A DNA stretch of 64,000 nt from Heptranchias perlo (GCF_035084215.1 NC_090338.1:40114001-40178000), one strand, 5' to 3'. Shown: positions 1 to 61,857, counted from the first letter of the stretch. Translations and numbers: made by a program. The notes: generated by a model not told the origin, from the letters alone.

Positions 1-364
1 AGGACACTGCCCTGAGGAACTCCTGCAGCAATGTCCTGGGGCTGAGATGATTGGCCTCCAACAACCACGAACATCTTCCTTTGTGCTAGGTATGACTCCA
101 GCCACTGGAGAGTTTTCCCCCTGATTCCCATTGACTTCAATTTTACTAGGGCTCCTTGGTGCCACACTCGGTCAAATGCTGCCTTGATGTCAAGGGCAGT
201 CACTCTCACCTCACCTCTGGAATTCAGCTCTTTTGTCCATGTTTGGCCCAAGGCTGTAATGAGGTCTGGAGCCGAGTGGTCCTGGCGGAACCCAAACTGA
301 GCATCGGTGAGCAGGTTATTGGTGAGTAAGTGCCGCTTGATAGCACTGTCGACGACACCTTCCA

Positions 365-2023
365 TCACTTTGCTGATGATTGAGAGTAGACTGATGGGGC
401 GGTAATTGGCCGGATTGGATTTGTCCTGCTTTTTGTGACAGGACATACCTGGGCAATTTTCCACATTGTCGGGTGGATGCCAGTGTTGTAGCTGTACTGG
501 AACAGGTTGGCTAGAGGCGCAGCTAGTTCTGGAGCACAAGTCTTCAGCACTACAGCTGGGATGTTGTCAGGGCCCATAGCCTTTGCTGTATCCAGTGCAC
601 TCAGCCGTTTCTTGATATCACGTGGAGTGAATCGAATTGGCCGAAGACTGGCTTCCGTGATGGTGGGGATATCGGGAGGAGGCTGAGATGGATTATCCAC
701 TCGGCACTTCTGGCTGAAGATGGTTGCAAATGCTTCAGCCTTGTCTTTTGCACTCACGTGCTGGACTCCGCCATCATTGAGAATGGGGATGTTTGCAGAG
801 CCTCCTCCTCCCGTTAGTTGTTTAATTGTCCACCACCATTCACGACTGGATGTGGCAGGACTGCAGAGCTTTGATCTGATCCGTTGGTTGTGGAATCGCT
901 TAGCTCTGTCGATAGCATGTTGCTTCCGCTGTTTAGCATGCATGTAGTCCTGAGTTGTAGCTTCACCAGGTTGGCACCTCATTTTTAGGTACGCCTGGTG
1001 CTGCTCCTGGCATGCTCTTCTACACTCCTCATTGAACCAGGGTTGATCCCCTGGCTTGTTGGTAATGGTAGAGTGAGGAATATGCCGGGCCATGAGGTTA
1101 CAGATTGTGCTGGAATACAATTCTGCTGCTGCTGATGGTCCACAGCGCCTAATGGATGCCCAGTTTTGAGCTGCTAGATCTGTTCTGAATCTATCCCATT
1201 TAGCACGGTGGTAGTGCCACACAACACGTTGGATGGTGTCCTCAGTGCGAAGATGGGATTTCATCTCCACGAGGACTGTGCAGTGGTCACTCCTACCAAT
1301 ACTGTCATGGACAGATGCATTTGCGACAGGTAGATTGGTGAGGACGAGGTCAAGTAAGTTTTTCCCTCGTGTTGGTTCGCTCACCACCTGCCGCAGGCCC
1401 AGTCTAGCAGCTATGTCCTTCAGGACTCGGCCAGCTCGGTCAGTAGTGGTGCTACCGAGCCACTCTTGGTGATGGACATTGAAGTCCCCCACCCAGAGTA
1501 CATTTTGTGCCCTTGCTACCCTCAGTGCTTCCTCCAAGTGGTGTTCAACATGGAGGAGGACTGATTCATCAGCTGAGGGAGGACGGTAGGTGGTAATCAG
1601 CAGGAGGTTTCCTTGCCCATGTTTGACCTGACGCCATGAGATTTCATGGGGTCCAGAGTCAATGTTGAGGACTCCCAGGGCCACTCCCTCCTGACTGTAT
1701 ATCACTGTACCGCCGCCTCTGGTGGGTCTGTCCTGCCGGTGGGACAGGACATACCCAGGGATGGTGATGGAAGAGTCTGGGACGTTGGCTGAAAGATATG
1801 ATTCTGTGAGTATGGCTGTGTCAGGCTGTTGTTTGACTCGTCTGTGGGACAGCTCTCCCAATTTTGGCACAAGTCCCCAGATGTTGGTAAGGAGGACCTT
1901 GCAGGGTCGACTGGGCTTGGTGTTTTGCCGTTTTCGTGTCCGGTGCCGAGTGGTCCGTCCGGTTTTATTCTTATTATGACTTTTCGTAGCGAGATTTTAC
2001 AACTGAGTGGCTTGCTAGGCCAT
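365..2023 (-). pseudogene. Endonuclease-linker-RT ORF of the tRNA-headed LINE (disrupted)
   Basis: 501-aa ORF from the ORF track. An in-frame upstream ATG at 2023 is followed by two stops in this copy but is open in the copy at 61641. Frameshift at ~437. Confidence 0.85.
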
Positions 2024-2252
2024 TTCAGAGGGCAATTAAGAATCAACCACATTGCTGTGGGTCTGGAGTCACATATCGGCCAGACCAGGTAAGGGCGGCA
2101 GGCTTCCTTCCCTAAAGGACATTAGTGAACCAGATGGGTTTTTACGACAATCCGGTAGTTTCATGGCCATCATTACTGATACTAGTATTTTAATTCCAGA
2201 TTTTTATTTAATTAATTGAATTTAATTAATTAATTGAATTTAAATTCGCCAG

Positions 2253-2341
2253 CTGCCGTGGTGGGATTTGAACTCATGACTCTGGATTTTAGTCCAGGCC
2301 TCTGGATTACTAGCCCAGTAACATAACCACTATGCTACCGT
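2253..2341 (-). promoter_or_regulatory. tRNA-derived (Thr-AGT-like) internal Pol III promoter at LINE 5' end
   Basis: Minus strand reads CGGTAGCATAGTGGTTATGTTACTGGGCTAGTAATCCAGAGG...GAGTTCAAATCCCACCACGGCAG. A box TAGCATAGTGG at 2327-2337, anticodon-loop-like CTAGTAA, B box GAGTTCAAATCCC at 2263-2275. Confidence 0.85.
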
Positions 2342-2342
2342 G

Positions 2343-2626
2343 CCTTAAACCCATCCCAGACGGTTAAATGATCTCAGTGCTGGTCTATCCACCAGTTTCT
2401 GTCCCTCCATTGTTCCTTTTAATCTCCAATATTAGCATACCTTAGAAGACATGAGATGCCTTCCACACACTATGTGGAATGGGGCTGGTCCGCCTGCTAG
2501 TTGTGGGAAAATACTGACTCTCTGTTTGAAAAACACTAAATGCTGGATACATGACTGAATAAATGCAGTAACTTAAACTAAACTTCCAGTACATTTAAAA
2601 ACCCTTATAAAAGATATTCTCTTACA
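2343..2626 (-). repeat. ERV 3' LTR (U3 part), interrupted by LINE copy 1
   Basis: Begins TGTAAG at 2626 on minus, preceded by purine-rich AAGGTAGGGAGT (PPT, 2627-2638). Aligns to 11215-11522 with many substitutions. Confidence 0.88.
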
Positions 2627-4739: not shown

Positions 4740-7500
4740 CGATTTGAGCTGGTTAATATGGTACCATTTAGTAACCTTTTTGTTTCCCTTCCCTGTATAC
4801 TGTATTAAGTACACAATCGAACTAGCTCTGTCTACTATGGGAAAGGGTTCTATCCATTTAGGCTCAAATATGTGTTCTCATTTCCCATTATTCAGAACCA
4901 TAACTACATCTCCTACCTCATACTCAGCGGGGTTTTTTTTGCCAAAATACTTTTTCATTTGATTTTTAGATTTCCGAATGTTACGTGCCACAAATCGGCT
5001 AGTTTCGTTTACATATTCCACCATCTGGTTTAACCGTTTACTTTTGATCATTCCCAACAACAAAGAAGTTACTGTGGACACTAAAAGGTGTCCTGGTGTA
5101 CACATCAGTCTTCCTGTCATAGCCTAGTATGGTGAGATACCTGTGGTGGCATGAGGAGTTGATCAAATTGCCATAAGACACATGGGTAGCACGTTTGCCC
5201 ATTGAGTGAGGTGATCTGCACAAAACTTTTTTAACATAGTTTTTAACGTCCGATTTCCTCTTTCTACCACACCCGACGATTGTGGGTGATGTGAAATGTG
5301 TAGTTTGTGCTCTATTTTCATGAGCTTTTGGAGTTCAGTAAAGATTTTGCCTGTGAAATGTGACCCTTGATCACTGTCTACTTGTATTGGTACTCCCCAC
5401 CTGCAGATCATCTCACTCAACAATATTCTAGCTGCAGTAAAAGCGGTGTTAGTCCTATGCGGGAATGCTTCCATCCACTTTGTGAATTTATCAATAATGA
5501 CCAAACAATGCAAGTAACTTAAAGGCACCTGGTGTAAAGGGTCTATGAAATCAATCTGTAAATGTGTCCCTCAGGGGGAGGTGCACTTTGAAGGAAGGCA
5601 CGATTGGTGTGTAAGGCTGGATTGTGTTGTAGGCATACTAAACATCTCGCTATGCGGCGAATGATGTCGTCTTTGCTTTTGGATTTTATGCAGAACAATA
5701 ACCACCATGGCATGACTGTGGAACATGTCAGATAATTCTTCAGCCACAGTAGGAGGAATACACACAATTGAGAATGATTTGGACTTGGGTTGATACATAA
5801 TAAGGACTGCCCATTATCGACAAGCCTGGTTTCGTGATCCCATGGTGTAGGTTGAGGTAGGGGTTTATTTTCTTGGTGCCGAGCCATGGATCGCTCATAC
5901 GGTGGCCAGAATATTTGTAAGCCATGATGTGGAGATGCCGGTGATGGACTGGGGTTGACAAATGTAAGGAATCTTACAACACCAGGTTATAGTCCTGGTG
6001 TATTTGTAGGGTGTGTAAGTTGAACTTGACGGGATAACTAGCTATGGCACACACACGGCCATTGGAGAATGGACCAAAAGGATACCCAGTGTGGGCAGTC
6101 CCTTTGGCAGCCTTGTCGGCTTGGGAATTACTGACTGAGTGTGGATCGGTACCTTTGGTTTGGGCCTTTACCTTACCGATGAAGCATGGCTGTCTTCTAT
6201 CTCTTATTCTTCCCACAACATTGTAAATAAATCACCATGTACCAATGATTTCCTATCGGAGGTGTGGTAGTTATTCTCACAATAGGAAGTGACAACATAG
6301 TAGTGATAGCTTAGGCACTGTCAGACCAAACATTGTTGGTCGGAGGTTTCAATTACAGCTGTCAAGAGTGCTGCGATTCAGCATATTGTGCTGAATGTGG
6401 CACGCACTTGTGCTGGATAATTTGTTCAGGGGCGACCACTGCAAAACCCGTAAATGATACCCACTTTTGGTGAAATGAGGAACCATCAATGTAGACATCT
6501 CTAACATCCTTCAGTGGCGTCTTCTGAACTGGGTTATTAACGAAATCTAAAAGCGGTAGGGGACACTCATGTCTGCCATTCGTTTGTAGAAGATAGTTGG
6601 AGCATTATGAAATCCCTGGGGCAGACAAGATCATGTATAACTCTGATCTTCAAAAGTAAAAGCAAATTAATACTGATCATCTTTTCTTACGGGTATGCTC
6701 TAAAGTCCATTAGCTATGTCTAGGGTTGAAAACTATTTGCCTCTGGGTGGAATTTGGGATAACAACGTTAGTGTTTCCCTCACCACGCATGAGCAATTGG
6801 GAGTGACTGAATTTAACTTGCGATAATCAATAGTTAATCGCCAACTACTGTCTAGTTTCTTAACGGGCCAAGTAGGAGAACTTGTAGTAAACGTGCAACT
6901 CTAACAATACCTTGCCACACTAATGACTGAATTGTAGCCTCCACATACGGATGCCTTTCCTTGGGAATTGCTTACTGTTTTGCGAATGGATGTTGGTATT
7001 TGTTCTCCTTCCATCTGTCCACAATCATATTTACTGCGAGCAGACGCAGATTTTTGAAGCATATTTTGTACCTCTGGGTCCTGATGGACCGGAAATCCAT
7101 ACACCTCCTCTTTCTTAATCGTGAATTCTGAACGCATATCTGAAATCTCTACAACCGACTTACTATTACTCATGCCAAACCGTAGACGTTGGTTAGAATA
7201 GTCAATAATGACACCGTAATGATCTAAAACATCAGTTCCCAATATACTTCGCCCTTCGCTAGTTTGCATTGCTACCGCAGTATGTAGTTTACACTATGCA
7301 CCTTGCAAAGATATCCGAGCTAAGCTCAACTGATAAGCACAGTGTGATGATCCTTCAAAACCTTTTAAAAATGTGCGTTTCCCTCCGGCTGCAGCGTGGC
7401 GTTTGGTGTTTGGAGTATGAATGATGGTTACCGCTGACCCTGTGTCTATTAACATCATCTGTCATTGGCCCCCATCAATAACAACAGAGACTACAGGTCT
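4740..7500 (-). pseudogene. pol: ERV pro-pol (PR, truncated RT, RNase H, integrase)
   Basis: IDTGS (~7436-7450), ILGTD, FAFTF..CLPQGFHNAP (~6597-6665), HEC then VYIDGSS (~6478-6497), SAQYAE, NSQADKAAK, CLVC, IIDKFTKWMEAFP, VDSDQGSHF, PQSSGVVERGN, YEVGDVVMV, WYHINQLK. Multiple frameshifts. Confidence 0.92.
5924..5995 (-). mobile_element. Penelope-like element terminal fragment inside ERV pol
   Basis: ATGTGGAGATGCCGGTGATGGACTGGGGTTGACA..TTACAACACCAGGTTATAGTCC, shared with 39740-39810, 57245-57312 (rc) and 60771-60803. Confidence 0.75.
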
Positions 7501-7562
7501 GGCATGGCCATCACGTTGTAACTCCACTACCGACTATGTCGGGGGAACCGACTCCCTTCATG

Positions 7563-8790
7563 TTAGCCCGGATTCTGTCCTTCAGGTGAAGCTGAAGGAG
7601 TGGTAGCTGTGACAATTGCCTCCACTTGTTCAGGTTGGCCCGTGATGTTACTGGTTGTCAGGAGTGCCAGTAATTTAGCCAATTTATCCTTGGTAGTATA
7701 TGACCGTGTCTCCAGTTTTTCGGAGTACCGAGGTGGAGGAAAGGCTGGGTAGTGGCTCCTTCCCTGTCTACAATCTCTGGCAAAATGTCGCATTTTGCCA
7801 CAATTGTCGCATTTTGCCACAATTGTAGCAATTTGGTCCCCTATTTCCTGATCCCAGCCCTTTATTTGGTCTCCAGTTAATCTTATCCTTCCGTGGTCCC
7901 TCAACCACTGACACTGTTCTTGAATTATGCAATGGGTCTGGCGATGTGTCCTTTTACGTCACCCCTGAATCGGGAGACTCAAAATTTCATTCCACCTATC
8001 ATTTTTACAGATGGAGTTTTCACTAACGGCTGCAACTGACATAAACATTTGTTTAAACAAGGTATCGTTTTACTGACCAGGCGGCGCTTGGATTGGTAGC
8101 GCATGTCCCCATCCAGGGCGGCCAATAAAATAGTTTTTAAATCACCATCTTCTAGCTCACCATGACCCTGTTTAAAATCTCCCCAAGCTCGAGTGAGCAT
8201 AATAGGGTCAGTCCCTCCTTAATGGTCCCTAATTCTCTAGCCAAAGCAGCTGCATCATCTGGTTTGATTGATTTACTGTCATTGTGTCGTGATGTAATCG
8301 CACCTTGTTGATTACGTCTCACACTGGCGGTAATCACATTTACGGGCTGGCTTTTCCAATCACCACAGTCGGGATTATTATAACATGCTGCTCCTCATTC
8401 GAACGGGTCATAATCTACTCTATCTCCTCCGCCGGTCGCAATAAATGACACCAGGGCTCTTTGTTGACCCAATTTTCCCCGTAGCTCATATATTTTTAAC
8501 TCACACTTTGTGTGATCTGTATTGCGAGCAGGTCTATTCACCATTTCCCTAAGGGCTCCTCACGCATCTTCTAGTTGTTGCCTCAAAACATCATTTTCTT
8601 CCAGCAACTCATCAATCTTATACTCATCTGCTGCGCTCCTAACCCCTAGGCAGCTGCCATAGCAGCTCCTGCCTGTGGTTGAGCGAGCACACAGGTCAGA
8701 TCCCTTTTCCTATTCTTGAGTTCCTCACACTGTTTTTCCCTTTTTTCTTTACCTTCCATATACTCTTGATCTTTCTTTTCCATCAATTCC
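7563..8790 (-). pseudogene. gag: ERV gag (C-terminal part; N-terminus at ~10420-10610 beyond a CR1 insertion)
   Basis: Zinc knuckle CDNCGKMRHFARDC in ORF 7563-7904, fragmented capsid-like ORFs 7979-8337, and a charged coiled-coil-like stretch at 8500-8790. Confidence 0.8.
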
Positions 8791-20082: not shown

Positions 20083-21370
20083 ACTGTGTTTTGGGAAGAA
20101 AAGCAGGGAATCTAAGAACTAAAAATATTGAAATGAATTGGTGTTTGATTTTGTAGACTAGTTTGCAACCTTAAAATTTTGCATTGCGGTAATTGGACAG
20201 TATTGGATAATTTTGTAGGCATTTTTTCTACAGCTCCTAAATTGGGTTTGATCTTATCAGTTAATCTTTTATAATGGATTTGTTGTTCATCAAGGTGAGG
20301 GATGTTAATGTTGGGGAATTCAATACTTTCCCATTTCAGGCACCCAATGTCAACATGAAGCACTTTCAGCTCAGGTAAAGATAGTTAAATTCATAGTAAA
20401 GTTTTTTCAACTCTGCTTCAATAATATGCCTTAATGTAAGTTCAGCATTAAATGAGCATCACTCTCTACCAGTGTGGCATTTTCCATTTCCCATACCAGT
20501 CATACTGTGGATCTTCGAATGAAACTTACAATTTAGTGCGATTAGTACCAAACTAAGAACATCTTTGTATTGTGGAACCATGTCCACCAGGAACTGAGCT
20601 AAGACTTAACAAATTAATTTCACGTAGTACCGTTACAATCACAGTCCAATGTTTTATTGATTAATGAACAAATTAAAATGTCCTTTATTCACAAATAAAC
20701 ATTTTTACATGATTTTTAAAAAAAAATTATATATTTAAGGTTCTATATTTCAGATTCAGCAAGTCTCAATTCAATATGTTCATAAAACTATTAATTTCAT
20801 TGCTGTATGTTTAATCAACATGTTAAAACTATTACCTCCAAAATAGTTATCAATGTGTACGAATAGACCATCAGTATAAAGAAACCTTCAAGTTTTTTTT
20901 ATGTGTAAATGTATAAAACATTTTTTTTAAGTCCCATCTTGTTGATTTTCGATGTATGCAGCAGCCAAAAAACATGTGTAAGTTTGTAAATTGGAGACCA
21001 GTGTTCATAAATTAGCATACTTAACTGTAATCTCAATATTTTTGTGATTTGACAAATTACATTCTCACTGTTCATCATGGTACAGCTGTAAAATGCTTTA
21101 CACCATGAAGATGTTATACTTTTCAGTCTGTGTGCCTAAAGTAGTAAAGTGTTACATGATAAAAAAAATTCAAAAATGGCTGAGGTGAGAACTGGACTAA
21201 GAACCCAAAGTAACCCAATTGGATGATTTTTGTTTATTCATAAATAACACGGCTAAGCAAAATTTAGACCACTTTGGGATCTTTTCAAAAAGTACAGCAT
21301 TTTTATTCTGCTCCATTATTAGTTGTTGTCATTTTGGTGACACAAGGTTATCTGTGACAGTTTTAAAAAA

Positions 21371-24300
21371 TTCGTTCATGGGATGTGGGCATCGCTGGCG
21401 AGGCCGGCATTTATTGCCCATCCCTAATTGCCCTTGAGAAGGTGGTGGTGAGCCGCCTTCTTGAACCGCTGCAGTCTGTGTGGTGACAGTTCTCCCACAG
21501 TGCTGGTAGGAAGGGAGTTCCAGGATTTTGACCCAGCGACGATGAAGGAACGGCGATATATTTCCAAGTCGGGATGGTGTATGACTTGGAGGGGAACGTG
21601 CAGATGGTGTTGTTCCCATGTGCCTGCTGCTCTTGTCCTTCTAGGTGGTAGAGGTCACGGGTTTGGGAGGTGCTGTCGAAGAAGCCTTGGCGAGTTGCTG
21701 CAGTGCATACTGTGGATGATACTCACTGCAGCCACTGTGTGCCGGTGGTGAAGGGAGTGAATGATAGGGTGGTGGATGGGGTGCTTTGTCCTGGATGGTG
21801 TTGAGCTTCTTGAGTGTTGTTGGAGCTGCACTCATCCAAGCAAGTGGAGAGTATTCCATCACACTCGTGACTTGTGCCTTGTAGATGGTGGAAAGACTTT
21901 GGGGAGTCAGGAGGTGAGTCACTCACCGCAGAATACCCAGCCTCTGATCTGCTCTTGTAGCCACAGTATTTATATGGTTGGTCCAGTTAAGTTTCTGGTC
22001 AATGGTGACCTCCAGGATGTTGATGGTGGGGGATTCGGCGATGGTAATGCCGTTGAATGTCAAGGGGAGGTGGTTAGACTCTCTCTTGTTGGAGATGGTC
22101 ATTGCCTGGCATTTGTCTGGCGCAAATGTTACTTGCCCCTTATCATCCCAAGCCTGGATGTTATCCAGGTCTTGCTGCATGCGGGCTTGGACTACTTCAT
22201 TATTTGAGGAGTTGCGAATGGAACTGAACACTGTGCAATCATCAGCGAACATCCCCATTTCTGACCTTATGATGGAGGGAAGGTCAGTGATCAAGCAGCT
22301 GAAGATGGTTGGGCCCAGGACACTGCCCTGAGGAACTCCTGCAGCAATGCCCTGGGGCGGAGATGATTGGCCTCCAACAACCACTACCATCTTCCTTTGT
22401 GCTAGGTATGACTCCAGCCACTGGAGAGTTTTCCCCCTGATTCCCATTGACTTCAATTTTACTAGGGCTCCTTTGTGCCACACTCGGTCAAATGCTGCCT
22501 TGATGTCAAGGGCAGTCACTCTCACCTCACCTCTGGAATTCAGCTCTTTTGTCCATGTTTGGACCAAGACTGTAATGAGGTCTGGAGCCAAGTGGTCCTG
22601 GCGGAACCCAAACTGAGCATTGGTGAGCAGGTGCTGCTTGATAGCACTGTCGACGACACCTTCCAATCACTTTGCTGATGATTGAGAGTAGACTGATGGG
22701 GTGATAACTGGCTGGATTGGATTGTCCTGCTTTTTGTGGACAGGACATACCTGGGCAATTTTCCATATTGTCGGGTAGATGCCAGTATTGTAGCTGTACT
22801 GGAACAGCTTGGCTAGAGGTGCAGCTAGTTCTGGAGCACACGTCTTCAGCACTACAGCCGGGATGTGGATCCCTTGAAGAGTATAGAGATTGCCGGAGTA
22901 GAGTTAAGAGACAAATCAGGAGGGCAAAAAGGGGACATGAGATTGCTTTGGCAGATAAGGCAAAGGAGAATCCAAAGAGCTTCTACAAATACATAAAGGG
23001 CAACAGAGTAACTAGGGAGAGAGTAGGGCCTCTTAAGGATCAACAAGGTCATCTATGTGCGGAACCACAAGAGATGGGTGAGATCCTGAATGAATATTTC
23101 ACATCGGTATTTACGGTTGAGAAAGGCGTGGATGTTAGGGAACTTAGGGAAATAAATTGTGATGTCTTGAGGAGTGTACATATTACAGAGAGGGAGGTGC
23201 TGGAAGTCTTAACGCGCATCAAGGTAGATAAATCCGATGAAATGTATCCCTGGACGTTATGGGAGGTTAGGGAGGAAATTGCGGGTCCCCTAGCAGAGAT
23301 ATTTGAATCATCGCCAGCTACAGGTGAGGTGCCTGAAGATTGGAGGGTAGCAAATGTTGTGCCTTTGTTTAAGAAGGGTGGCAGGGAAAAGCCTGGGAAC
23401 TACAGACCGGTGAGCCTGACATCTGTAGTGGGTAAGTTGTTCGAGGGTATTCTGAGAGACAGGATCTACAGGCATTTGGAGAGGCAGGGACTGATTAGGA
23501 ACAGTCAGCATGGTTTTGTGAGTGGAAAATCATGTCTCACGAATTTGATTGAGTTTTTTGAAGGGGTAACCAAGAAGATAGATGAGGACTGTGCAGTAGA
23601 CGTGGTCTACATGGACTTCAGCAAAGCCTTTGACAAGGTACCGCATGGTAGGTTGTTACATAAGGTTAAATCTCACGGGATCCAAGGTGAGGTAGCCAAT
23701 TGGATACAAAATTGGATTGACGACAGAAGACAGAGGGTGGTTGTAGAGGGTTGTTTTTCAAACTGGAGGCCTGTGACCAGCGGTGTGCCTCAGGGATCGG
23801 TGCTGGGTCCGCTGTTAATTGTTATTTATATTAATGATTTGGATGAGAATTTAGGAGGCATGGTTAGTAAGTTTGCAGATGACACCAAGATTGGTGGCAT
23901 TGTGGACAGTGAAGAAGGTTATCTGGGATTGCAACGGGATCTTAATAAATTGGGCCAGTGGGCCGATGAATGGCAGATGGAGTTTAATTTAGATAAATGT
24001 GAGGTGATGCATTTTGGTAGATCGAATCGGGCCAGGACCTACTCCGTTAATGGTAGGGCGTTGGGGAGAGTTATAGAACAAAGAGATCTAGGAGTACAGA
24101 TTCATAGCTCCTTGAAAGTGGAGTCACAGGTGGATAGCGTGGTGAAGAAGGCATTCGGCATGCTTGGTTTCATTGGTCAGAACATTGAATACAGGAGTTG
24201 GGATGTCTTGTTGAAGTTGTACAAGACATTAGTAAGGCCACACTTGGAATACTGTGTACAGTTCTGGTCACCCTATTATAGAAAGGATATTATTAAACTA

Positions 24301-25240
24301 GAAAGAGTGCAGAAAAGATTTACTAGGATGCTACCGAGACTTGATGGTTTGACTTATAGGGAGAGGTTGGATAGACTGAGACTTTTTTCCCTGGAGAGTA
24401 GGAGGTTAAGGGGTGATCTTATAGACATCTATAAAATAATGAGGGGCATAGATAAGATAGATAGTCAAAATCTTTTCCCAAAGGTAGGGGAGTCTATAAC
24501 GAGGGGCATAGATTTAAGGTGAGAGGGGAGAGATACAAAAGGGTCCAGAGGGGCAATTTTTTCACTCAAAGGGTGGTGAGTGTCTGGAACGAGCTGCCAG
24601 AGGCAGTAGTAGAGGCGGGTACAATTTTGTCTTTTAAAAAGCATTTGGACAGTTACATGGGTAAGATGGGTATAGAGGGATATGGGCCAAGTGCAGGCAA
24701 TTGGGACTAGCTTAGTGTTATAAACTGGGCGACATGGACATGTTGGGCCGAAGGGCCTGTTTCTATGTTGTAAACTTCTATGATTCTATGATTCTATATT
24801 GTCGGGGCCCATAGCTTTTGCTGTATCCAGTGCGTTCAGCCGTTTCTTGATATCATGTGGAGTGAATCGAATTGGCTGAAGACTGGCTTCTGTGATGGTG
24901 GGTATATCAAGAGGAGACCGAGATGGATCATCCACTCGGCACTTCTGGCTGAAGATGGTTGCAAACGCTTCAGCCTTGTGTTTTGCACTCACGTGCTGGA
25001 CTCCGCTATGATTGAGGATGGGGATGTTTGCAGAGCCTCCTCCTACCGTTAATTGTTTCATTGTCCACCACTGGATGTGGCAGGACTGCAGAGCTTTGAT
25101 CTGATCCATTGGTTGTATTTTAATTCCAGATTTTTATTTAATTAATTGAATTTAAATTCCCCGGCTACCGTGGCAGGAAGTGAACTCATGACTCCGGATT
25201 ATTAGTCCGGGCCTCTGGCACATAACCACTATGCTACCGT
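21371..25240 (-). mobile_element. tRNA-headed LINE copy 2 (3' end to 5' head; endonuclease deleted; CR1 inserted at 22867-24797)
   Basis: RT ORF 21923-22666 (FADD), 3' end ..CCCACATCCCATGAACGAA, linker 24798-25115, head 25116-25240 matching 2186-2341. Confidence 0.92.
22867..24797 (+). mobile_element. Young CR1 LINE, 5'-truncated, nested in LINE copy 2
   Basis: RT open from ~22867 to a frameshift near 24505, (ATTCTATG)n tail. The host LINE resumes at TTGTCGGGGCCC. Confidence 0.97.
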
Positions 25241-25605
25241 ACCCATTTGGAGACCGGACAACAAAGATAGGCAGTGGACTTTTTCTAAAAGAGAATTTAT
25301 TTTTCTTAATTTATAAATATTGTCCTGCTCTGTGTTGTGGGGCTTCTGGCAGTTTAGTGTTAAATGTGTATCTGGTGCCACTCTATCTGGTGGGGGAATT
25401 GGACGTAGCTATGCTCTCATGAGGAATGCTCATCAAGGGGTGGAATTTCCTCTGGGGGTGTAATTGGGAACTTATATCCGAAATTATGCCCATTCATGCA
25501 ACCATTTTGCCGATATCAATTTACACCTAAATTCCTGCAAATCTCAACAGGATACGCCGGAACGTAAGATTCAGTGTAAACAAGCAGAAATAATGTAAAC
25601 AATTA

Positions 25606-31649: not shown

Positions 31650-34600
31650 AGCTTAGTTAAAAGCTGCAGGAGCTGGTGACACGGTCTGAGGTGGCTGCAG
31701 TAACCATAGAGGTAACCACACGCTCCATGGTAGATTGAAGAGTGCTAATGCCTTTAACTGAATACCACACAAGCTGGAAGCAGTCTGGAACCATGGCGGG
31801 CATTGGTTGAGGGGGTGGTGAGGGAGCAGGTGTGATGTCATTCTGAGTGACATGGGGCACGATTTTAACTTTGAAGTCCGGGCGGGGTGGGGCAAAGAAA
31901 ATCAGGATTTTCTGGAGCGGGAAGGAATCCCGGCTCCAACCTGCCGAAAAACGCGCATGACCTGGAGCTATCTTGGTGCGCACGCTGTTCCCGAACCCAG
32001 AAGTCCTACCGGCAATTAAAATTGGCGGGATGATATTTAAACCAGCAATTCGAGTATTTGAAGTACTTGAAATGTGCATAAATTTAATTAACAATGATTG
32101 CAAGCAATTTTAACGCTGCCTCAACGCGTTTCCCATGCTGTGTGAAGCATAGCAGCGGAAACTCGGCGGGTTGCAGCCGGCAGCTATTTGGACATTTAAA
32201 TCCCTGTTTGATAAATGGGGATTAAAGATGAGTTATTGCAGCAGGGCACTCAGTTCTCTCAGACAAACTTTTGGCTGGGAGTTCTTTGTGTTTAGACTGA
32301 AAATTCATGGTTTACACTCAGAATTGTTCTGTTTACACATATTTACCTACTTTTTGGACCCCCTCAAACTGACGACATCAGGATGATGGGCGCAATGGCT
32401 GCATTTAGCAGTACATCTGAGTTCCCCCTCTTGCAGCTCCACAACACAGAGGTGCGCCACAGGCACCTGCACAAGAGCACAGAGGGGAACAACAGAGGGA
32501 CCGATGTCGCAGGAGACAATACCCTCATGAGAGGGTCTACAGACCGAGGCTGAGCTTCCTGGACCTCTCTGAGGAACAGTGCCAACGGAGGCTGAGAGTG
32601 AGTCGCCAGGTGGTCACAGACATCTGCAGCCTCCTTCATGCTGAGCTGCTCCCGGCTGGGCCTGGTGGCATTGCATTGCTGGTCGTAGTTAAAGTGACCA
32701 CTGCCCTTAACTTCTTTGCCTCCGGATCATTCCAGGGCGCCAACGGTGACATCGCTCCACCTGCGCCTGTGCAGGGGCAGATTCGGTCAACTGGAGAGGA
32801 GGCAGCATTGCGGTTATTAGATGAGAGGTGGGCAACGGGTGAGACGTGGGAGCACTTTGAATGGCGTCCCCTTTCGCCATGTCTCCTTTCGCCATCATCC
32901 CTCCCCTGGGCCAGGCCCACATCACTCCTACCACCCTGCTGGAGAACAGTTTGGAGGACATGTATAATGCCTTGCTAGCCTTGTTGTAAAGTTTCTGGCT
33001 GCCTGTTTAAGGCGGTAGAATGTTGCTCACCCTGAGTCCGGACGGCTGTTGTCAGGGCCTGAATGGACTCATTTGTGAGCCGTGCTTGTAGCTCAATGGA
33101 GGCTAGCCTTCTCTCAATCGCAGACATTGTCGCACTTACCTGCGCCACCATTCCACTCATGCAGGAGTTGGACTCCTCCATCCTCTGCACTGTGGAGAGT
33201 GTGCGTGGCACCTCTTCTAGTACCTCGCAAATGTGCTGCTGCCTCTTGACCATTCTCCTTTTAAAGGATGGCCCCCAAGGTTCAGCATCTGCATCCAGCT
33301 GAGCAGAGCCTGGAGAGGAGTGTGCCCACCTTGTACACTTATGCAATCATTGAATGAGCTTGGTGGAAGAGTACAGCTGTGTTATCAGCCACAAGGACAG
33401 CAACACCATCCATGCCTGTTCCACACCTACTCCACTAATAGGCAATGTCTTAACACACCCACTGATCTGCAACAGAACAGATCCAGTGAGAGCACTGAGC
33501 TTATTGAATCCCCTTTTAATGGTTGTTTCAACATGATTTCCCAGCCTTTTCAAGGAGGATGGGACAGAGCAACCCAAGCCCTGCATAGCAACAGCACGAG
33601 CATTCTAAAGAGATGCTATGAACGGCATTCTGGCTCTGTCATGAGGGGAGGGACTTTCTGCTGTGGCTGACTCTGGAGTTGCCATGTGCTGCATGGTGGA
33701 CTTCAGAAATTTTATCCCATGCATCAGAACACCACACATGTGGATTGTGTATCCTCCACAGTTGCTGATGTGGTGAAAGGTCCTAGGCGTACACTCTAAT
33801 AACTGCAGCTTAGTAAGCACCCTTCTTTTAAAAGCAAAGTCCCTTAGATCAACATCTATACCTAATCAGCCGAGAATAGATGTGACATCTGGTTTCTGTT
33901 CCTCTTCATCTGCTTCTTCTCATTCATGCTTTGTTTAGCATTCAGTGCACTCTCCTCAAATTCACTGACAAATCCTGCAGGGTAATGTTCTTGAGCCAGG
34001 ACTTTGCAGAGTTCGAGGGAATGACAGTGATTGTTCCTGTGTTCCTGCATTCTTGCAGCAACAACTCTCTGGCTCCTGTTCTGTTTCATGTCCCATTCGT
34101 CAAAAAAGAGAAGAGAAACAAGTGTTACAGTGCTGCTTTGATGGCAACTTAGTTTACTTTCTGCAGAATGACTGAAAAGAGATCGATCTTCAATGTCTGC
34201 TTTGGTTCCAGTAAGGCTTGAGTGAGTAAATAAATAGGCTAAGAAAAAGAGAGCAGCAAATGTTGAGCACAAACCTGAATTGGGGTCTGATATTCTGCAT
34301 CCCCATCCTATACTTCCTTCATATTCTCCATGCATTAGGTCTCTTCGACTGACTCTTTAACAGGTGTAAGGAGATAGAGGTTGGGAGTCTTCCTCCTGTG
34401 TGGTTTCTGTCTTTCTTATTATATGCAGTTTTCTCTTTCAAAAACAAGAGAAGGAATTGAATTATTGATGTTGGCAGAAGGACAGTCATATCATCCTCCT
34501 GCCCATAGTGGATATGATTGTAGGAATAAGCACATTCTATTACAGAAGTTGTCAGGGGCAACAGCAGTTCAGGATGTCAGGCAAAAGTGAGATGCAGCAA

Positions 34601-38215: not shown

Positions 38216-38487
38216 AGAAATGGAAAAAACAAGTGCAGTAGAATGTATGGGTTAAGGCATCAGAAATGTTCTTGCAGCAGTATAAAGGGAGCTTCAGTCT
38301 ACATTTGCCAAAGCTAGGACTGCTTGATGTTGACATCCCTTTCCTTTGAATAACACAAAAGTTGACAACCACCTCCAAAACATTACAGAAAAGAAAAGAA
38401 AATTGCCATAGGCAAGTTTAGATCATGTTGTACACTGAACTTAATTTTATTCAGTGAGATGTTTACACCCTCGTCTGTTTTTTTTTT

Positions 38488-38657
38488 ACTCGTTCATGGG
38501 ATGTGGGCGTCGCTGGCGAGGCCGGCATTTATTGCGCATCCCTAATTGCCCTTGAAAAGGTGGTGGTGAGCCGCCTTCTTGAACTGCTGCAGTCCGTGTG
38601 GTGACGGTTCTCCCACAGTGCTGTTAGGAAGGGAGTTCTAGGATTTTGACCCAGCGT
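38488..38657 (-). mobile_element. 3' end of the tRNA-headed LINE family
   Basis: Matches 21371-21538, with a poly-A tail (T run at ~38478-38487 on plus). Confidence 0.9.
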
Positions 38658-55413: not shown

Positions 55414-55890
55414 TCACTGCAGAGTGGGTGTAGGTGTATTTGCAGGGCTCTTTTTTGCAGACGACTGAGAGACGTCGGCGATGTCCCCGGTGGCACCCTG
55501 GAAGGATGCGGAGGAGAAGTTGTTGTGGGTAGTGGTGACTTTGACAGCGACAGGTAAGAAGATGGTGCTTGGGCCAGCCGGGAGTAGCTCGGCATGAAGG
55601 AGGCTGCAGATGTCCACGACTACATGTCGAGTGACTCTGAGCCTCCGTGTGCACTGCTGCTCAGAGAGGTCCAGGAAGCTGAGCCTCGGTCTGTGGACCC
55701 TGTGGCGAGGGTAGTGCCCCCTGCAACGCATCTCTCTCTGTGGTAGCCCTCCCTCCTGCTGTGCAGGTGGATGTGTCAGAGCACTCTGTTGTGGAGCTCC
55801 ACGTGTCAGAGGTGGACGGCGTGAACGGCGAGGCTGGTGATGCTGTTCGCCCTCCGAGGAGGTCATGACTGCAGCTACGGCGGCCCCCAT
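55414..55890 (-). pseudogene. Harbinger transposase N-terminal (HTH) fragment; DDE domain absent
   Basis: HRPRLSFLDLSEQQCTRRLRVTRHVVVDICSLL..LPVAVKVT..FQGATGDIADVSQSSA. Confidence 0.82.
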
Positions 55891-57018
55891 CCGGAAGATG
55901 TACATTTGAGGGGATTCGCAAGGTAGGTAAATGTGTCTGGACACTGGGGTAAGTGTGCAAGTTGGTGAATTTTGTTGTTAGGAGGAGGGTGGTGGAGGCC
56001 AAACTTTGTCCAAAGTGACAGAGTGGCCTCCTGCAATGAGTGAGGGTCTCCCCCCACCCCCCCAACCTGTCAAATGGACCTTTGCAGCTGCTACAGGCTG
56101 ATGGCGGCAACAAGTCCATTTGAACTGGGAGTGTTTCCCCCAGTACGGGAAACAATCTCAGTCAGTTGCAAAATCCCATCCCTGCTAAAATAACAGGTCA
56201 ATCAGGTCTGTAAACTACCTGAAGTACCTGTTTAAGTCTTTAAGTGGCAGCCCGCCGGCTTTAACTGCCGGCGGGAGTCCCACATGCGGGGACTGCGTGC
56301 GCATGTGAGCGTGTCAGTGGTGAACCCGGAAATGGGGCGGGTTGGAGCTGGGCTCCGGACCCGCCCCGGGAATCCCCGACTTTCGCAGCCCTCCCGCCAC
56401 GAACGCACCCGATCGCGGGTGCGAAAATCGAGCCCATTGTCTGAGTGAGAGAGGGACAGAGATACACAGTATGTGAGGAAGAGAAACGTAGAGAAGTGTG
56501 CAAGAGAGATAGAGAGTACCAGACATAATGAAAGAGAGAAGAAAAGGCATAAACACAGAGAAAGAGATAGTAAATGTGAAACATATAGAAGAAAGTAGAC
56601 ACAATCAAGGAGAGACTCACACAGGAGACAAGGAGATCAGATCAGAAACCTAATTTTAATTAGTTGTATGTTTTAAAATGCCTCTGTTTTGCCTTTCTTA
56701 GCCTGCCTTACATTGAAGTAGATTTGCAATTGGTTACTATAACAACTGGCCATAGAGTCAACAATCGCAGCTCAGAGGCAGTGTTTAAAGTGAACTTTTG
56801 ATTAAATTGCCAGTAAGTGGAGCCTATGCTGACTGTACAAGCTGCTGTCACAGTAACTAACTGGAAACTATCTTCACTCTTTGGGAGGCAGAACATCAAC
56901 AAGTTAAAACATATTACTGCCTCAAATTAAAGTTTCATGATATAATGCTCCTCTCATTATAAAACAATTGTAAACAATTTTACAACACCAAGTTGTAGTC
57001 CAGCAATTTTATTTTAAA

Positions 57019-57226: not shown

Positions 57227-57679
57227 TTTAAAATAAAATTGCTGGACTATAACTTGGTGTTGTAAAATTGTTTACAATTGTCAACCCCAGTCCATCACCG
57301 GCATCTCCACATCATTATAAAACAGTGTATTCTTGGAGCAAGCAATGCCACAGGAGACCATAGGATCATTGAAACATACAGCACTGAAGGAGGCCATTCA
57401 GCCCATCGTGTCAGTATCAACTCTTCGAAGAACTATCCAATTAGTACCACTCCCCTGCTCTTTCCCCATAGCCCTGCAAACCTGCTAGTTTATGTATTAC
57501 AGTTTTTGAGCTGCATCCATTATACCTTAGATTATATACTGTCATACATGAAAGGTTCTGTGTCATAATTTTTTAAAAAAGCCTAAAAGAAAGGAAAGGA
57601 AAACCAACCATTTCCAATGCATAGAGAAATCCCCCGCCAATAGAAAATATCTTCTAATTGACTTTTTAAAAATAATTAT

Positions 57680-58143
57680 TCATTCATGGGATGTGGGCTT
57701 CGCTGACAAGGCCAACATTTATTGCCCATCCCTAATTGTCCTTGAGATGGTGGTGGTGAGCCGCTTTCTTGAACCGCTGCAGTCCATGTGGTGAAGGTAT
57801 CCACACGGTGCTGTTAGGTAGGGAGTTCCAGGATTTTGACTCAGCGATGATGAAGGAACGGTGGATATGTTTCCAAGTCGGGATGGTGTGTGACTTGGAG
57901 GGGAACGTGCAGGTGGTGGTGTACCCATGCGCCTGCTGCCCTTGTCCTTTTAGGTGGTAGAGGTCGCGGGTTTGGGAGGGCTTGAAGAAGCCTTGGCGAG
58001 TTGCTGCAGTGCATCTTGTAGATGGTACACACTGCAGCCACGGTGTGCTGGTGGTGGAGGGAGTGAATGTTTAAGATGGTGGAGGGGGTGCCAATCAAGC
58101 AGGCTGCTTTGTCCTGGATGGTGTCGAGCTTCTTGAGTGTTGT
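57680..58143 (-). mobile_element. 3' fragment of the tRNA-headed LINE family
   Basis: Matches 21371-21820 (NIHSLHH..VAAVCTIYKMHC, 3' UTR). Confidence 0.92.
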
Positions 58144-59375: not shown

Positions 59376-61857
59376 TCATCTTGTAGATGGTACACACTGC
59401 AGCCATGGCGCGCCGGTAGTGGAGGGAGTGAATGTTTAAGGTGGTGGATGGGGTATCAATCAAGCGGGCTGCTTTGTCCTGGATGGTGTCGAGCTTCTTG
59501 AGTGTCGTTGGAACTGCACTCATCCCGGCAAGTGGAGAGTGTTCCATCACACCCCTGATTTGTGTCTTGTAGATGGCGGAAAGGCTTTGGAGAGTCAGGA
59601 GGTGAGTAACTTGCTGCAGACCTGCTCTTGTAGGCACAGTATTTATGTGGCTAGTCCAGATAAGTTTCTGGTAAATGGTAACCCCCAGGATGTTGATGGT
59701 GGGGAATTTGGTGATGGTAATGCCGTTGGCTGTCAAGGGGATGTGGTTGGACTCTCTCTTGTTGGAGATAGTCATTGCCTGGCACTTGTCTGGCAGTAAT
59801 GTTATTTGCCACTTATCAACCCAAGCCTGGATGTTGTCCAGGTCTTGCTGAATACGGGCAAGGACTGCTTCATTATCTGAGGGGTTGCGAATGGAACTGA
59901 ACACTGTGCAATCATCAGCGAGCATCTCCACTTCTGAACTAATGATGGAGGGAAGGTCATTGATGAAGCAGCTGAAGATGGTTGGGCCCAGGACACTGCC
60001 CTGAGGAACTCCTGCAACAATGTCCTGGGCTGAGATGATTGGCCTCCAGCAACTACTAACATCTCCCTTTGTGCTAGGTATGACTCCAGCCACTGGAGAG
60101 TTTCCCCCTGATTCTCATTGACTTCAATTTTACTAGGGCTCCTTGATGCTACACTCGGTCAAATGCTGCCTTGATGTCAAGGGCAGTCACTCTCACCTCA
60201 CCTCTGGAATTCAGCTCTTTTGTCCATGTTTGGACCAAGGCTGTAATGAGGTCTGGAGCTGAGTGGTCCTGGCAGAACCCAAACTGAGCATCGGTGAGCA
60301 GGCTATTGGTGAGTAAGTGCCGCTTGATAGCACTGTCAACGACACCTTCCATCACTTTGCTGATGATTGAGGTAGGCTGATGAGCAATAATTGGTCGGAT
60401 TGGATTTGTCCTTTTTGTGGACAGGACATACCTGGGCAATTTTCCACATTGTCGGGTAGATGCCAGTGTTGTAGCTGTACTGGAACAGCTTGGCTAGAGG
60501 CGAAGCTAGTTCTAGAGCACAAGTCTTCAGCACTACAGCCGGGATGTTGTCGAGGCCCGTTGCCTTTGTTGTATCCAGTGCCCTCAGCCGTTTCTTAATA
60601 TCACATGGAGGGAATCGAATTGGCTGAAGACCATTGGCTTCTGTAATGGTGGGGATCTCGGGAGGAGGCCGAGATGGATCATCCACTTGGCACCTCTGGC
60701 TGAAGATGGTTGCGAACGCTTCAGCCTTGTCTTTTGCATGAGAATACTGGGCTCTACCATCATTGAGGATTGTAAGGAATCTTACAACACCACGTTATAG
60801 TCCAACAGTTTTATTTGAAAATCACAAGCTTTCGGAGGCTTTCTCCTTCGTCAGGTGTGTGTGGGATTCCTTGAATGTTACCGTGTTTATAGTCAGAGAA
60901 CAATGCCTGGTGATTACAGATAATCTTTCCAACTGCCTGTTGTCAATGCAATAAAAGTGTTCAGACAGAGAGATGTTACCCACAGGACCACTGAATATAC
61001 AAACGGCCAGAACAAAAGACAGAGAGAGAGAGAGTCAGCAGAGGTGCTACCGAGCCACTCTTGGTGATGGACATTGAAGTCCCCCACCCAGATTATATTC
61101 TGTATCCTTGCTACCCTCAGTGCTTCCTCCAAGGGGTTCTCAACATGTAGGAGTACTGATTCATCAGCTGAGGGAGGGCAGTAGGTTGTAATCAGCAGGA
61201 GGCTTCTTTGCCCATGTTTGACCTGATGCCATGAGACTTCATGGGGTCGGGAGAAAATGTTGAGGACTCCCAGGGCCACTCCCTCCTGATTGTATATCAC
61301 TGTACCGCCACCTCTGGTGGGTCTGTCCTGCCGGTGGGACAGGACATACCCAGGGATGGTGATGGAGGAGTCTGGGACGTTGGTAGGTATGATTTTGAGT
61401 ATGGCTATGTCAGGCTGTTGCTTGCCTAGTTTGTGGGACAACTCTCCAATTTTGGCACAAGTGCCCAGAAGTTAGTGAGGAGGACTTTGCAGTGTCGACT
61501 GGGCTTGGTTTGCCCTTGCCTTTGCCTTTGCCTTTGTCGCGTCCGGTGCCTAGTGGTCTGATGCCGGGTGGTCCATCTGGTTTTATTTTTATTGTGACTT
61601 TCTGTGGCTGGATTGTACAACTGAGTGGCTTGCTCGGCCATTTCAGAGGGCAGTTAAGAATCAACCACATTGCTGTGGGTCTGGAGTCACATATAGGCCA
61701 GACTGGGTAAGTACGGCAGGTTTCCTTCCCTAAAGGACATTGGTGAACCAGATGGGTTTTTACGACAATCCGGTAGTTTCATGGTCACCATTAATGATAC
61801 TAGCTTTTTATTCCAGATTTTATTTAATTAACTGAAATTAAATTCCCCAGCTGCCGT
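59376..61857 (-). mobile_element. tRNA-headed LINE copy 3 (head truncated; Penelope insertion/deletion at 60771-61033)
   Basis: EN ORF 60914-61441, RT ORFs 60336-60686, 60149-60439 and 59347-60093, and 5' UTR 61620-61857 matching 2001-2258. Confidence 0.93.
60771..61033 (-). mobile_element. Penelope-like fragment with hammerhead (60823-60857)
   Basis: Reverse complement CAC-CTGACGA-A-GGAG AAAGC CTCC-GAAA-GCTT-GTG, followed by GGACTATAACGTGGTGTTGTAAG. Confidence 0.8.

Follow-up and report, generated by a model that had tools for sequence, protein, structure and literature searches.

The retrotransposon at the start of our window (the whole 64,000-nt stretch of Heptranchias perlo DNA analysed here) is a Zenon LINE, and we see slightly better than even chances that RNA polymerase III (Pol III) transcribes it and that it is translated by AUG-independent internal entry through a hairpin that mimics an anticodon. 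The initial annotation of this DNA had noticed that the sense strand of the element lacks TTTT, had proposed selection for Pol III read-through as the cause, and had asked how an uncapped RNA would be translated. This last question turned out to lead further than the rest: no usable AUG opens the ORF, and an anticodon-like hairpin lies before it.

The element is an elasmobranch Zenon LINE of 3.3 kb with one ORF and a poly-A tail, an assignment obtained by comparing by eye its 5’ 400 nt with published consensuses. In the accessible part of the supplement of PMC13343379, in fact, the first 400 nt of the elasmobranch Zenon consensuses closely resemble the leader of copy 1, and the family name rests on this match, our own RT tree having contained no named Zenon reference. 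Zenon is defined by the absence of ORF1 and by a poly-A tail (Stuart et al. 2026, PMC13343379); here a single ORF carries the APE and RT domains, there is no ORF1, and an A-tail is found in 39 of 40 copies, the exception being L036, which is interrupted before the tail. The features identified in the window are reported in Table 1.

Table 1. Zenon elements of the window and their parts, with positions counted from the first letter of the window
Feature	Position	Strand	Details
Zenon copy 1	1..2344	-	full length 3.3 kb; ~960 bases more to the left of the window, to the poly-A tail
Single ORF, copy 1	1..1990	-	Pfam PF14529, PF03372, PF00078
ORF order, copy 1		-	basic N-terminal extension 1990-1889; APE endonuclease from 1888; then reverse transcriptase
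tRNA-like head	2254..2344	-	ARAGORN; Rfam tRNA only 18.7 bits, below cut-off; 5’ GGG in 32/54 copies
Pol III A box	2327..2337	-	commonest letters constant over age classes except one CpG-adjacent site
Pol III B box	2264..2275	-	unchanged across age classes; canonical form in three published shark consensuses
Leader, predicted internal ribosome entry site	1991..2171	-	~180 nt, near-fixed length, non-coding
Hairpin, predicted anticodon stem-loop mimic	2007..2023	-	7-nt loop 2018-2012, central AGC 2016-2014
GCT-ACG codon pair	1985..1990	-	coding constraint begins; inferred non-AUG start
Zenon copy 2	21365..25244	-	head fragment 25244-25115, mid-ORF 25116-24796, 3’ half and tail 22866-21370
Zenon copy 3	59390..61857	-	older, 5’-clipped; insertion at 60771-61033; private T4 at 61254
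Zenon 3’ fragment	57676..58143	-	
Zenon 3’ fragment	38482..38656	-	

When the shark’s own genome (3.25 Gb) was searched with the head-to-ORF junction, 40 places were scored, all 97-100% identical; all 40 best matches carry the head joined to the ORF (97-98% identity), all 40 fetched copies begin at the tRNA-like head, nearly all are ~3.3 kb long with an A-tail, and 10 of the 40 have open frames of 965-970 codons. A protein search added 47 further places, 40 of them without internal stops, and the 30 that were fetched belong to the same family. Altogether 170 copies were projected on one natural copy, and 169, falling in several age classes, remained once L058 (a duplicate of L052) had been dropped; these are the best matches of targeted searches and not a random sample, and many of the older ones are partial. 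Target-site duplications are short or absent, with no 4-nt match in 32 of 43 cases by a crude search. Copy 1 has one 1-nt frameshift near 430-440, and in copy 2 the head is joined to mid-ORF through an internal deletion; a CR1 copy (window 22867-24795) also sits inside copy 2. The genome contains short head-plus-tail elements with variable junctions (29 exact pattern matches, plus more), as expected of internal-deletion derivatives. Related headless families were not found in the shark’s own genome, where a distant protein query led back to the same family and an endonuclease scan to CR1, and the viral and prokaryote collections returned no relatives beyond distant RTs.

Other observations were made along the way. 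Some full-length copies (L046, L052, L054) show an inverted head duplicate at the 5’ junction, and one segment of P0008, a shark aldo-keto reductase gene model, is 80% identical to the Zenon ORF, an annotation that likely absorbed a Zenon copy. The window also holds broken remnants of an LTR retroelement at 5163-7958 (minus strand), in which gag/protease-like pieces accompany an integrase core (PF00665), and two transposase-like ORF fragments (32421-32978 and 55414-55977) that are 77% related, one of which gave no Pfam match at 0.001.

The case for Pol III begins with the tRNA-like 5’ end of the element, which contains an A and a B box, called here with what we take to be the consensus of these boxes, and in which the 5’ end is fixed ~8-12 nt upstream of the A box. 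In 45 of 54 copies this end is TAC with 0-4 G at one place, and the prevailing three-G start lies directly before the tRNA acceptor position. Both boxes stay constant while spacer positions change across age classes, although these changes are too few for a test, and the same head and start are kept in copies ~8% and 11% diverged. Among the published Zenon consensuses, as far as their supplement is accessible, the tRNA head was recognized by eye in 7 of 7 from sharks and rays, none of which has TTTT in its first 400 nt, and one base is missing from the B box of the ray; two hagfish and one coelacanth consensuses have a headless start and several runs of four or more Ts, even though their 5’ ends may be incomplete. 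Because all seven shark and ray consensuses begin with it, the head would predate the shark-ray split. Its folding energy (MFE) was no better than that of shuffled sequences. A tandem duplication of the anticodon arm (window 2318-2282) was also seen in the head, and it adds ~20 nt to the A-to-B box distance. On the whole, we consider transcription of this element by Pol III to be probable.

What the initial annotation had counted was confirmed. AAAA is absent from the plus strand of 1-2340, hence no sense-strand TTTT, and the 20 plus-strand TTTT agree with the more than 15 that had been claimed. The stretch of copy 2 described as free of sense T4 (21371-22860) has 0 AAAA, with a sense T6 at 21365-21370, in the mutated poly-A tail, just beyond that boundary. 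The T4 of copy 3 is also present and, because no T4 occurs near that site in 130 projected copies, does look private, as had been suggested. The CR1 copies of the window, said to contain several sense-strand T-runs, have nine T4 each in three young copies and five and seven in two older ones, numbers that are at expectation. Whether zero is remarkable for 1-2340 depends on the null: shuffling bases gave 3.4 expected (P=0.033), shuffling dinucleotides 1.5 (P=0.20), and shuffling synonymous codons in the two ORF pieces of copy 1 gave 0.84 and 0.36 (P=0.38 and 0.67). Taken alone, the absence of T4 in 1-2340 is weak evidence. The codon-preserving comparison that the annotation had called for, performed on intact 968-codon ORFs, gave a borderline result that falls within the nulls (0 T4 vs 2.0-2.9 expected, P=0.05-0.10), and therefore the T4 count by itself does not provide the independent proof of Pol III transcription that had been read into it. 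Over a whole 3.3-kb copy, 0 T4 compare with 4.3 expected (P=0.013).

Selection for Pol III read-through, the other part of that proposal, draws its support from elsewhere, namely TTT depletion, codon context, the lack of weak terminators, the boxes and the fixed 5’ end. T4 runs in the family consensus would have spoken against it, and no T4 is common to more than four copies (at most 3 of 130 copies in one set and 4 of 29 in another share a site); any T4 is lacking in 69 of 81 copies of the young class, 12 of 22 of the middle, 14 of 26 of the old and 17 of 40 of the oldest, and only seven TTT sites are shared within the young family. A comparison of fixed with private T4 was powerless, as 0.4% of substitutions make a T4 and 193 are fixed. 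With protein and third-position composition held fixed, the ORF shows 0 T4 against 2.1-2.3 expected (P 0.08-0.10) but 5-6 TTT against ~17 expected, a deficit reached in 0 of 3000 nulls, while in the same nulls runs of the other bases were near expectation (A3 38 vs 46, P=0.04; C and G P>0.4). Synonymous T is used at 5-6 of 41-43 sites at which it forms a run of three, compared to 189-194 of ~478 elsewhere (odds ratio 0.20-0.25, p 0.0002-0.0008). The motifs T3VT2 and T2VT3, which are weak terminators of Pol III (PMC5381342), occur 0 times in the sense and 3-5 times in the antisense strand, so that neither an internal T4 nor a weak T-rich terminator is present, even if the significance of the T4 count alone is borderline; Pol III is also able to skip T4 (PMC5381342). 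TTT is no terminator itself, and its depletion may reflect selection against weak terminators, or against those one step away, in a very long Pol III template.

Among control ORFs (three CR1 from the window and 18 metagenome ORFs of 400+ codons drawn from 49 loci), 20 of 21 have T4, and the nearest relative of the shark element, L121, a sister group in our tree with 42% amino acid identity and no tRNA head, has seven in its ORF. Phe makes up 2.0-2.1% of the Zenon ORF vs 3.0-5.7% in relatives. T-run under-use is not diagnostic, however, since two headless relatives show it: L138 (0 T4 vs 6.1 expected, odds ratio 0.23) and L130 (3 vs 11.5). L123, a sister 85% identical to the fragment L138, has eight T4 in its full ORF and an odds ratio of 0.59. 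The headless L138, whose ORF likewise under-uses T-runs, also carries at 940-980, in frame and upstream of the endonuclease (as translated by eye), DVESNPGP, which we take to be a 2A/StopGo-like motif.

Two mutational patterns were seen among the copies. The variability of TpA, and most of all of CTAG, is 2-9 times the average and about that of CpG (copies L031-L319; reference columns 34, 326, 504, 937, 1167, 2256 and 2343), with the T varying in the 5’ sites and the A in the 3’ sites. A-rich tracts and poly-A tails recurrently become TTTTAAAA-type palindromes after insertion (window 21365-21370; L033, L034, L046, L068, L173, L178), changes that create private T-runs in the tail and in the AT-rich spacer.

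As for translation, the leader contains nine AUGs, none of which opens the ORF, and within the ORF itself no in-frame Met is reached until downstream of the endonuclease. The last leader ATG (2023) is in frame and is followed by a TAG (2017-2015) in 85 of 125 copies and by a TAA (1999-1997). The stretch from stop to endonuclease measures 100-120 nt and is coding; the length classes common to at least three copies are all multiples of 3. Comparing the oldest with the young lineage, with L437 left out as young-like, 7 of 8 changes downstream of GCU are synonymous (neutral fraction 0.30, p=0.001), as opposed to 0 of 5 in the three codons directly upstream of it (Fisher p=0.005 vs downstream); in the main frame of the leader the ratio is 4 synonymous to 7 non-synonymous. 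From this evolutionary constraint we infer that the ORF starts at the non-AUG GCU-ACR, GCU being also the typical start codon of ORFs behind type 6 IRESs. In the whale-shark consensus, read by eye in the accessible supplement, the spacer is 8 nt and not 9, and GCU is still in the ORF frame. As a point against such a start, L121 and P0003 also have a Met shortly before the endonuclease. An internal start independent of AUG is, in our opinion, very likely.

The leader has no shared indels in reference positions 176-346, and the AT-rich spacer upstream is freely variable. Its hairpin has a 4-5-bp stem and a loop of the form C-N-AGC-N-A, with AGC, at the anticodon positions, complementary to the in-frame GCU 21 nt downstream; the stem is closed by A-C in young copies, by G-C in those of the oldest lineage and by A-U in the consensus of the ray. 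The AGC:GCU pairing hypothesis was set down before headless relatives were examined. In two of these, the metagenome loci L121 and L142, the loops read CCAGCUA and CUAGCGA on stems of 11-12 bp that are unlike the shark stem in sequence, and GCU-ACA follows in frame 23-24 nt past the loop, ahead of a basic extension of ~30 codons. When four hairpin sequences, which form two related pairs, were aligned, pairing held in 35 of 36 cells, with both sides changed at two stem pairs; between loop and codon, the three pairs, the only 3 bp available, are invariant in all four. The motif was defined once shark and L121 had been seen; control strands totalling 303 kb contain it six times, L121 and L142 included, and the two strands of the window once, at the ORF start. 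It was not found in other, more distant metagenome loci; 2 of 49 loci carry it, and many of the 49 lack their 5’ ends. Measured against PKI of type 6 IRESs, the stem is compensated and the loop and GCU are conserved, but three pairs that never vary leave the pairing itself a prediction; the hairpin likely works like PKI; that it is a mimic of a tRNA anticodon seems to us reasonably likely. The leader gave no IRES match in Rfam, its MFE folding was no better than shuffles (z=0.25), and a simple helix search identified neither a PKII/PKIII equivalent nor nested pseudoknots; for these reasons it is not filed here as a member of type 6, for whose ribosome-binding domain (PKII/PKIII, L1.1, SLIV/SLV) these searches gave no counterpart. 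Upstream of the hairpin, L121 (450-660) and L142 (360-503) share a conserved structured leader of ~140 nt without an Rfam match, a candidate ribosome-binding domain or ribozyme.

These data could be read differently. The RNA might be made by Pol II, from a leader-internal promoter or by host read-through, with the head as a passenger or a TFIIIC-binding helper and with T-runs avoided on other grounds, for instance because of slippage or of U-rich signals for processing, in which case an internal, AUG-independent start would still be needed. LINEs are generally regarded as Pol II transcribed (PMC5786205), there is an AATAAA ~40 nt upstream of the tail, L138 and L130 under-use T-runs without a head, and the headless L121 combines the hairpin-GCU module with its seven T4. 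We nevertheless find this unlikely in light of 5’ ends that fall at the tRNA start both in LINE copies and in the short deletion derivatives, which begin at the same position, of A and B boxes that persist in sharks and a ray, and of the TTT content of the shark ORF, the lowest observed/expected ratio of 22 families or fragments (~0.3; next 0.41). The T-run deficit could also stem from composition and mutation only, a polymerase-neutral account built on a T-poor, Phe-poor sense strand (T is 19.5-20.7% of it) and on the hypermutability of TpA noted above, and in agreement with T4 P values of 0.03-0.2. Such an account seems very improbable: none of the 3000 nulls with protein and third-position composition fixed reached the observed TTT count, the effect is specific to T and to codon context and survives dropping TpA and CpG sites (odds ratio 0.18, p=0.01), and CR1 of the same genome shows no such context-specific avoidance.

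Pol III transcription could, instead, be right and the start wrong, with translation beginning at the ATG at 2023 followed by stop read-through, by re-initiation once a short ORF upstream has been read, by a frameshift out of an upstream ORF that overlaps, or at a near-cognate codon, and with the hairpin doing another job. That ATG is in good context in most lineages, UAG-CAA is a leaky stop context, the T of the TAG is variable in 25 of 77 young copies, and the codon after GCU is ACG in the young family. Against this, 75 of 77 young copies, and the dogfish consensus too, keep the second in-frame stop, TAA; the ATG is GTG in 21 of 36 oldest copies, the codon after GCU is ACA, not ACG, in older lineages, and 17 of 33 oldest copies have ACG in place of the upstream AUG that overlaps. 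In the whale shark, the upstream ATG is out of frame because the spacer has lost a base relative to the usual length, and coding constraint is absent upstream of GCU. A start of this kind is, in our judgement, quite unlikely.

If the start is at GCU and the promoter in the head, TFIIIC would bind the head and Pol III would transcribe the whole element, presumably stopping, as SINE transcription does, where the flanking DNA offers its first T-run. The uncapped 3.3-kb RNA might then load ribosomes at the leader in a factor-independent manner, with the hairpin setting the frame at GCU via AGC:GCU pairing, and the ORF protein would prime reverse transcription at the tail. The entry site appears to be older than the head because headless relatives with T4 runs have it; the Pol III head could thus have been captured later, in the shark-ray ancestor, and the T-runs purged afterwards, a sequence of events in which a pre-existing entry site would make the switch to an uncapped Pol III transcript viable. 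In its boldest form, the proposal is an autonomous 3.3-kb Pol III mRNA with a factor-independent, tRNA-mimicking IRES, kept since the shark-ray ancestor and with an IRES module that predates the head, to which we can give only tentative credence, somewhat short of even chances. If true, initiation of the dicistrovirus type would exist in animal genomes, in an IRES shared with headless Zenon-like LINEs, and such a module would have let a LINE become a self-sufficient SINE.

The family itself is already published. Elasmobranch Zenon as described by Stuart et al. (2026, PMC13343379) has the same single APE and RT ORF, lack of ORF1, poly-A tail and ~3.3-kb length; the accessible portions of its main text and supplement contain 0 mentions of tRNA or start codon and do not describe the head, the T-run avoidance or the AUG-less start. 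These three are what appears to be new, with no prior description in the full-text literature searched, a body of text that covers few subscription papers or Repbase reports, where the head may have been noted. Persaeus, a SIDE derived from Zenon, has no Pol III promoter (PMC6740152), unlike the element studied here. DeuSINEs and SacSINE1, a label at first considered for the leader, were rejected as a match, the Deu central domain being absent from it: the published Deu alignment, in the available part of the supplement of PMC7245038, is by eye unlike the leader, and a search allowing three mismatches did not detect the Deu motif. With tRNA-derived SINEs (SINE2) the element shares a head with internal A and B boxes, the lack of an internal terminator and the A-tail, but it is autonomous and protein-coding, unlike SINEs. 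It suggests, moreover, that SINE-like elements arise by deletion from a LINE already carrying a head. The usual assumption is that Pol II makes LINE transcripts whereas what Pol III makes is short and non-coding, and a 3.3-kb Pol III mRNA occurring in nature would break this divide.

R2 and L1Tc/ingi likewise have RNAs left uncapped by ribozyme cleavage, for which internal initiation is assumed; these RNAs derive from co-transcripts of Pol I or Pol II, and we know of no Pol III head or anticodon mimic in them. For the debated start of translation of LINE ORF2-type proteins, AGC:GCU gives a concrete prediction of three base pairs. Luke et al. (2013, PMC3894237) raised IGR IRESs in LINEs only as a possibility, one that would force a revised ORF2 start. 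Intergenic IRESs of dicistroviruses (type 6) are 165-190 nt long, start mostly at GCU, with one class at ACA, and use PKI as an anticodon-codon mimic (PMC10275262, PMC12221177). The Zenon leader resembles them in length, in its predicted non-AUG GCU or ACA start, and in an anticodon-like loop complementary to an in-frame codon after a variable linker; it differs in having only three potential pairs, none co-varying, no SLIV, SLV, PKII or PKIII that we could find, and no Rfam match, and in lying within a cellular retrotransposon. The origin of type 6 IRESs has been termed unknown (PMC12221177), and it is on this origin that the Zenon module bears.
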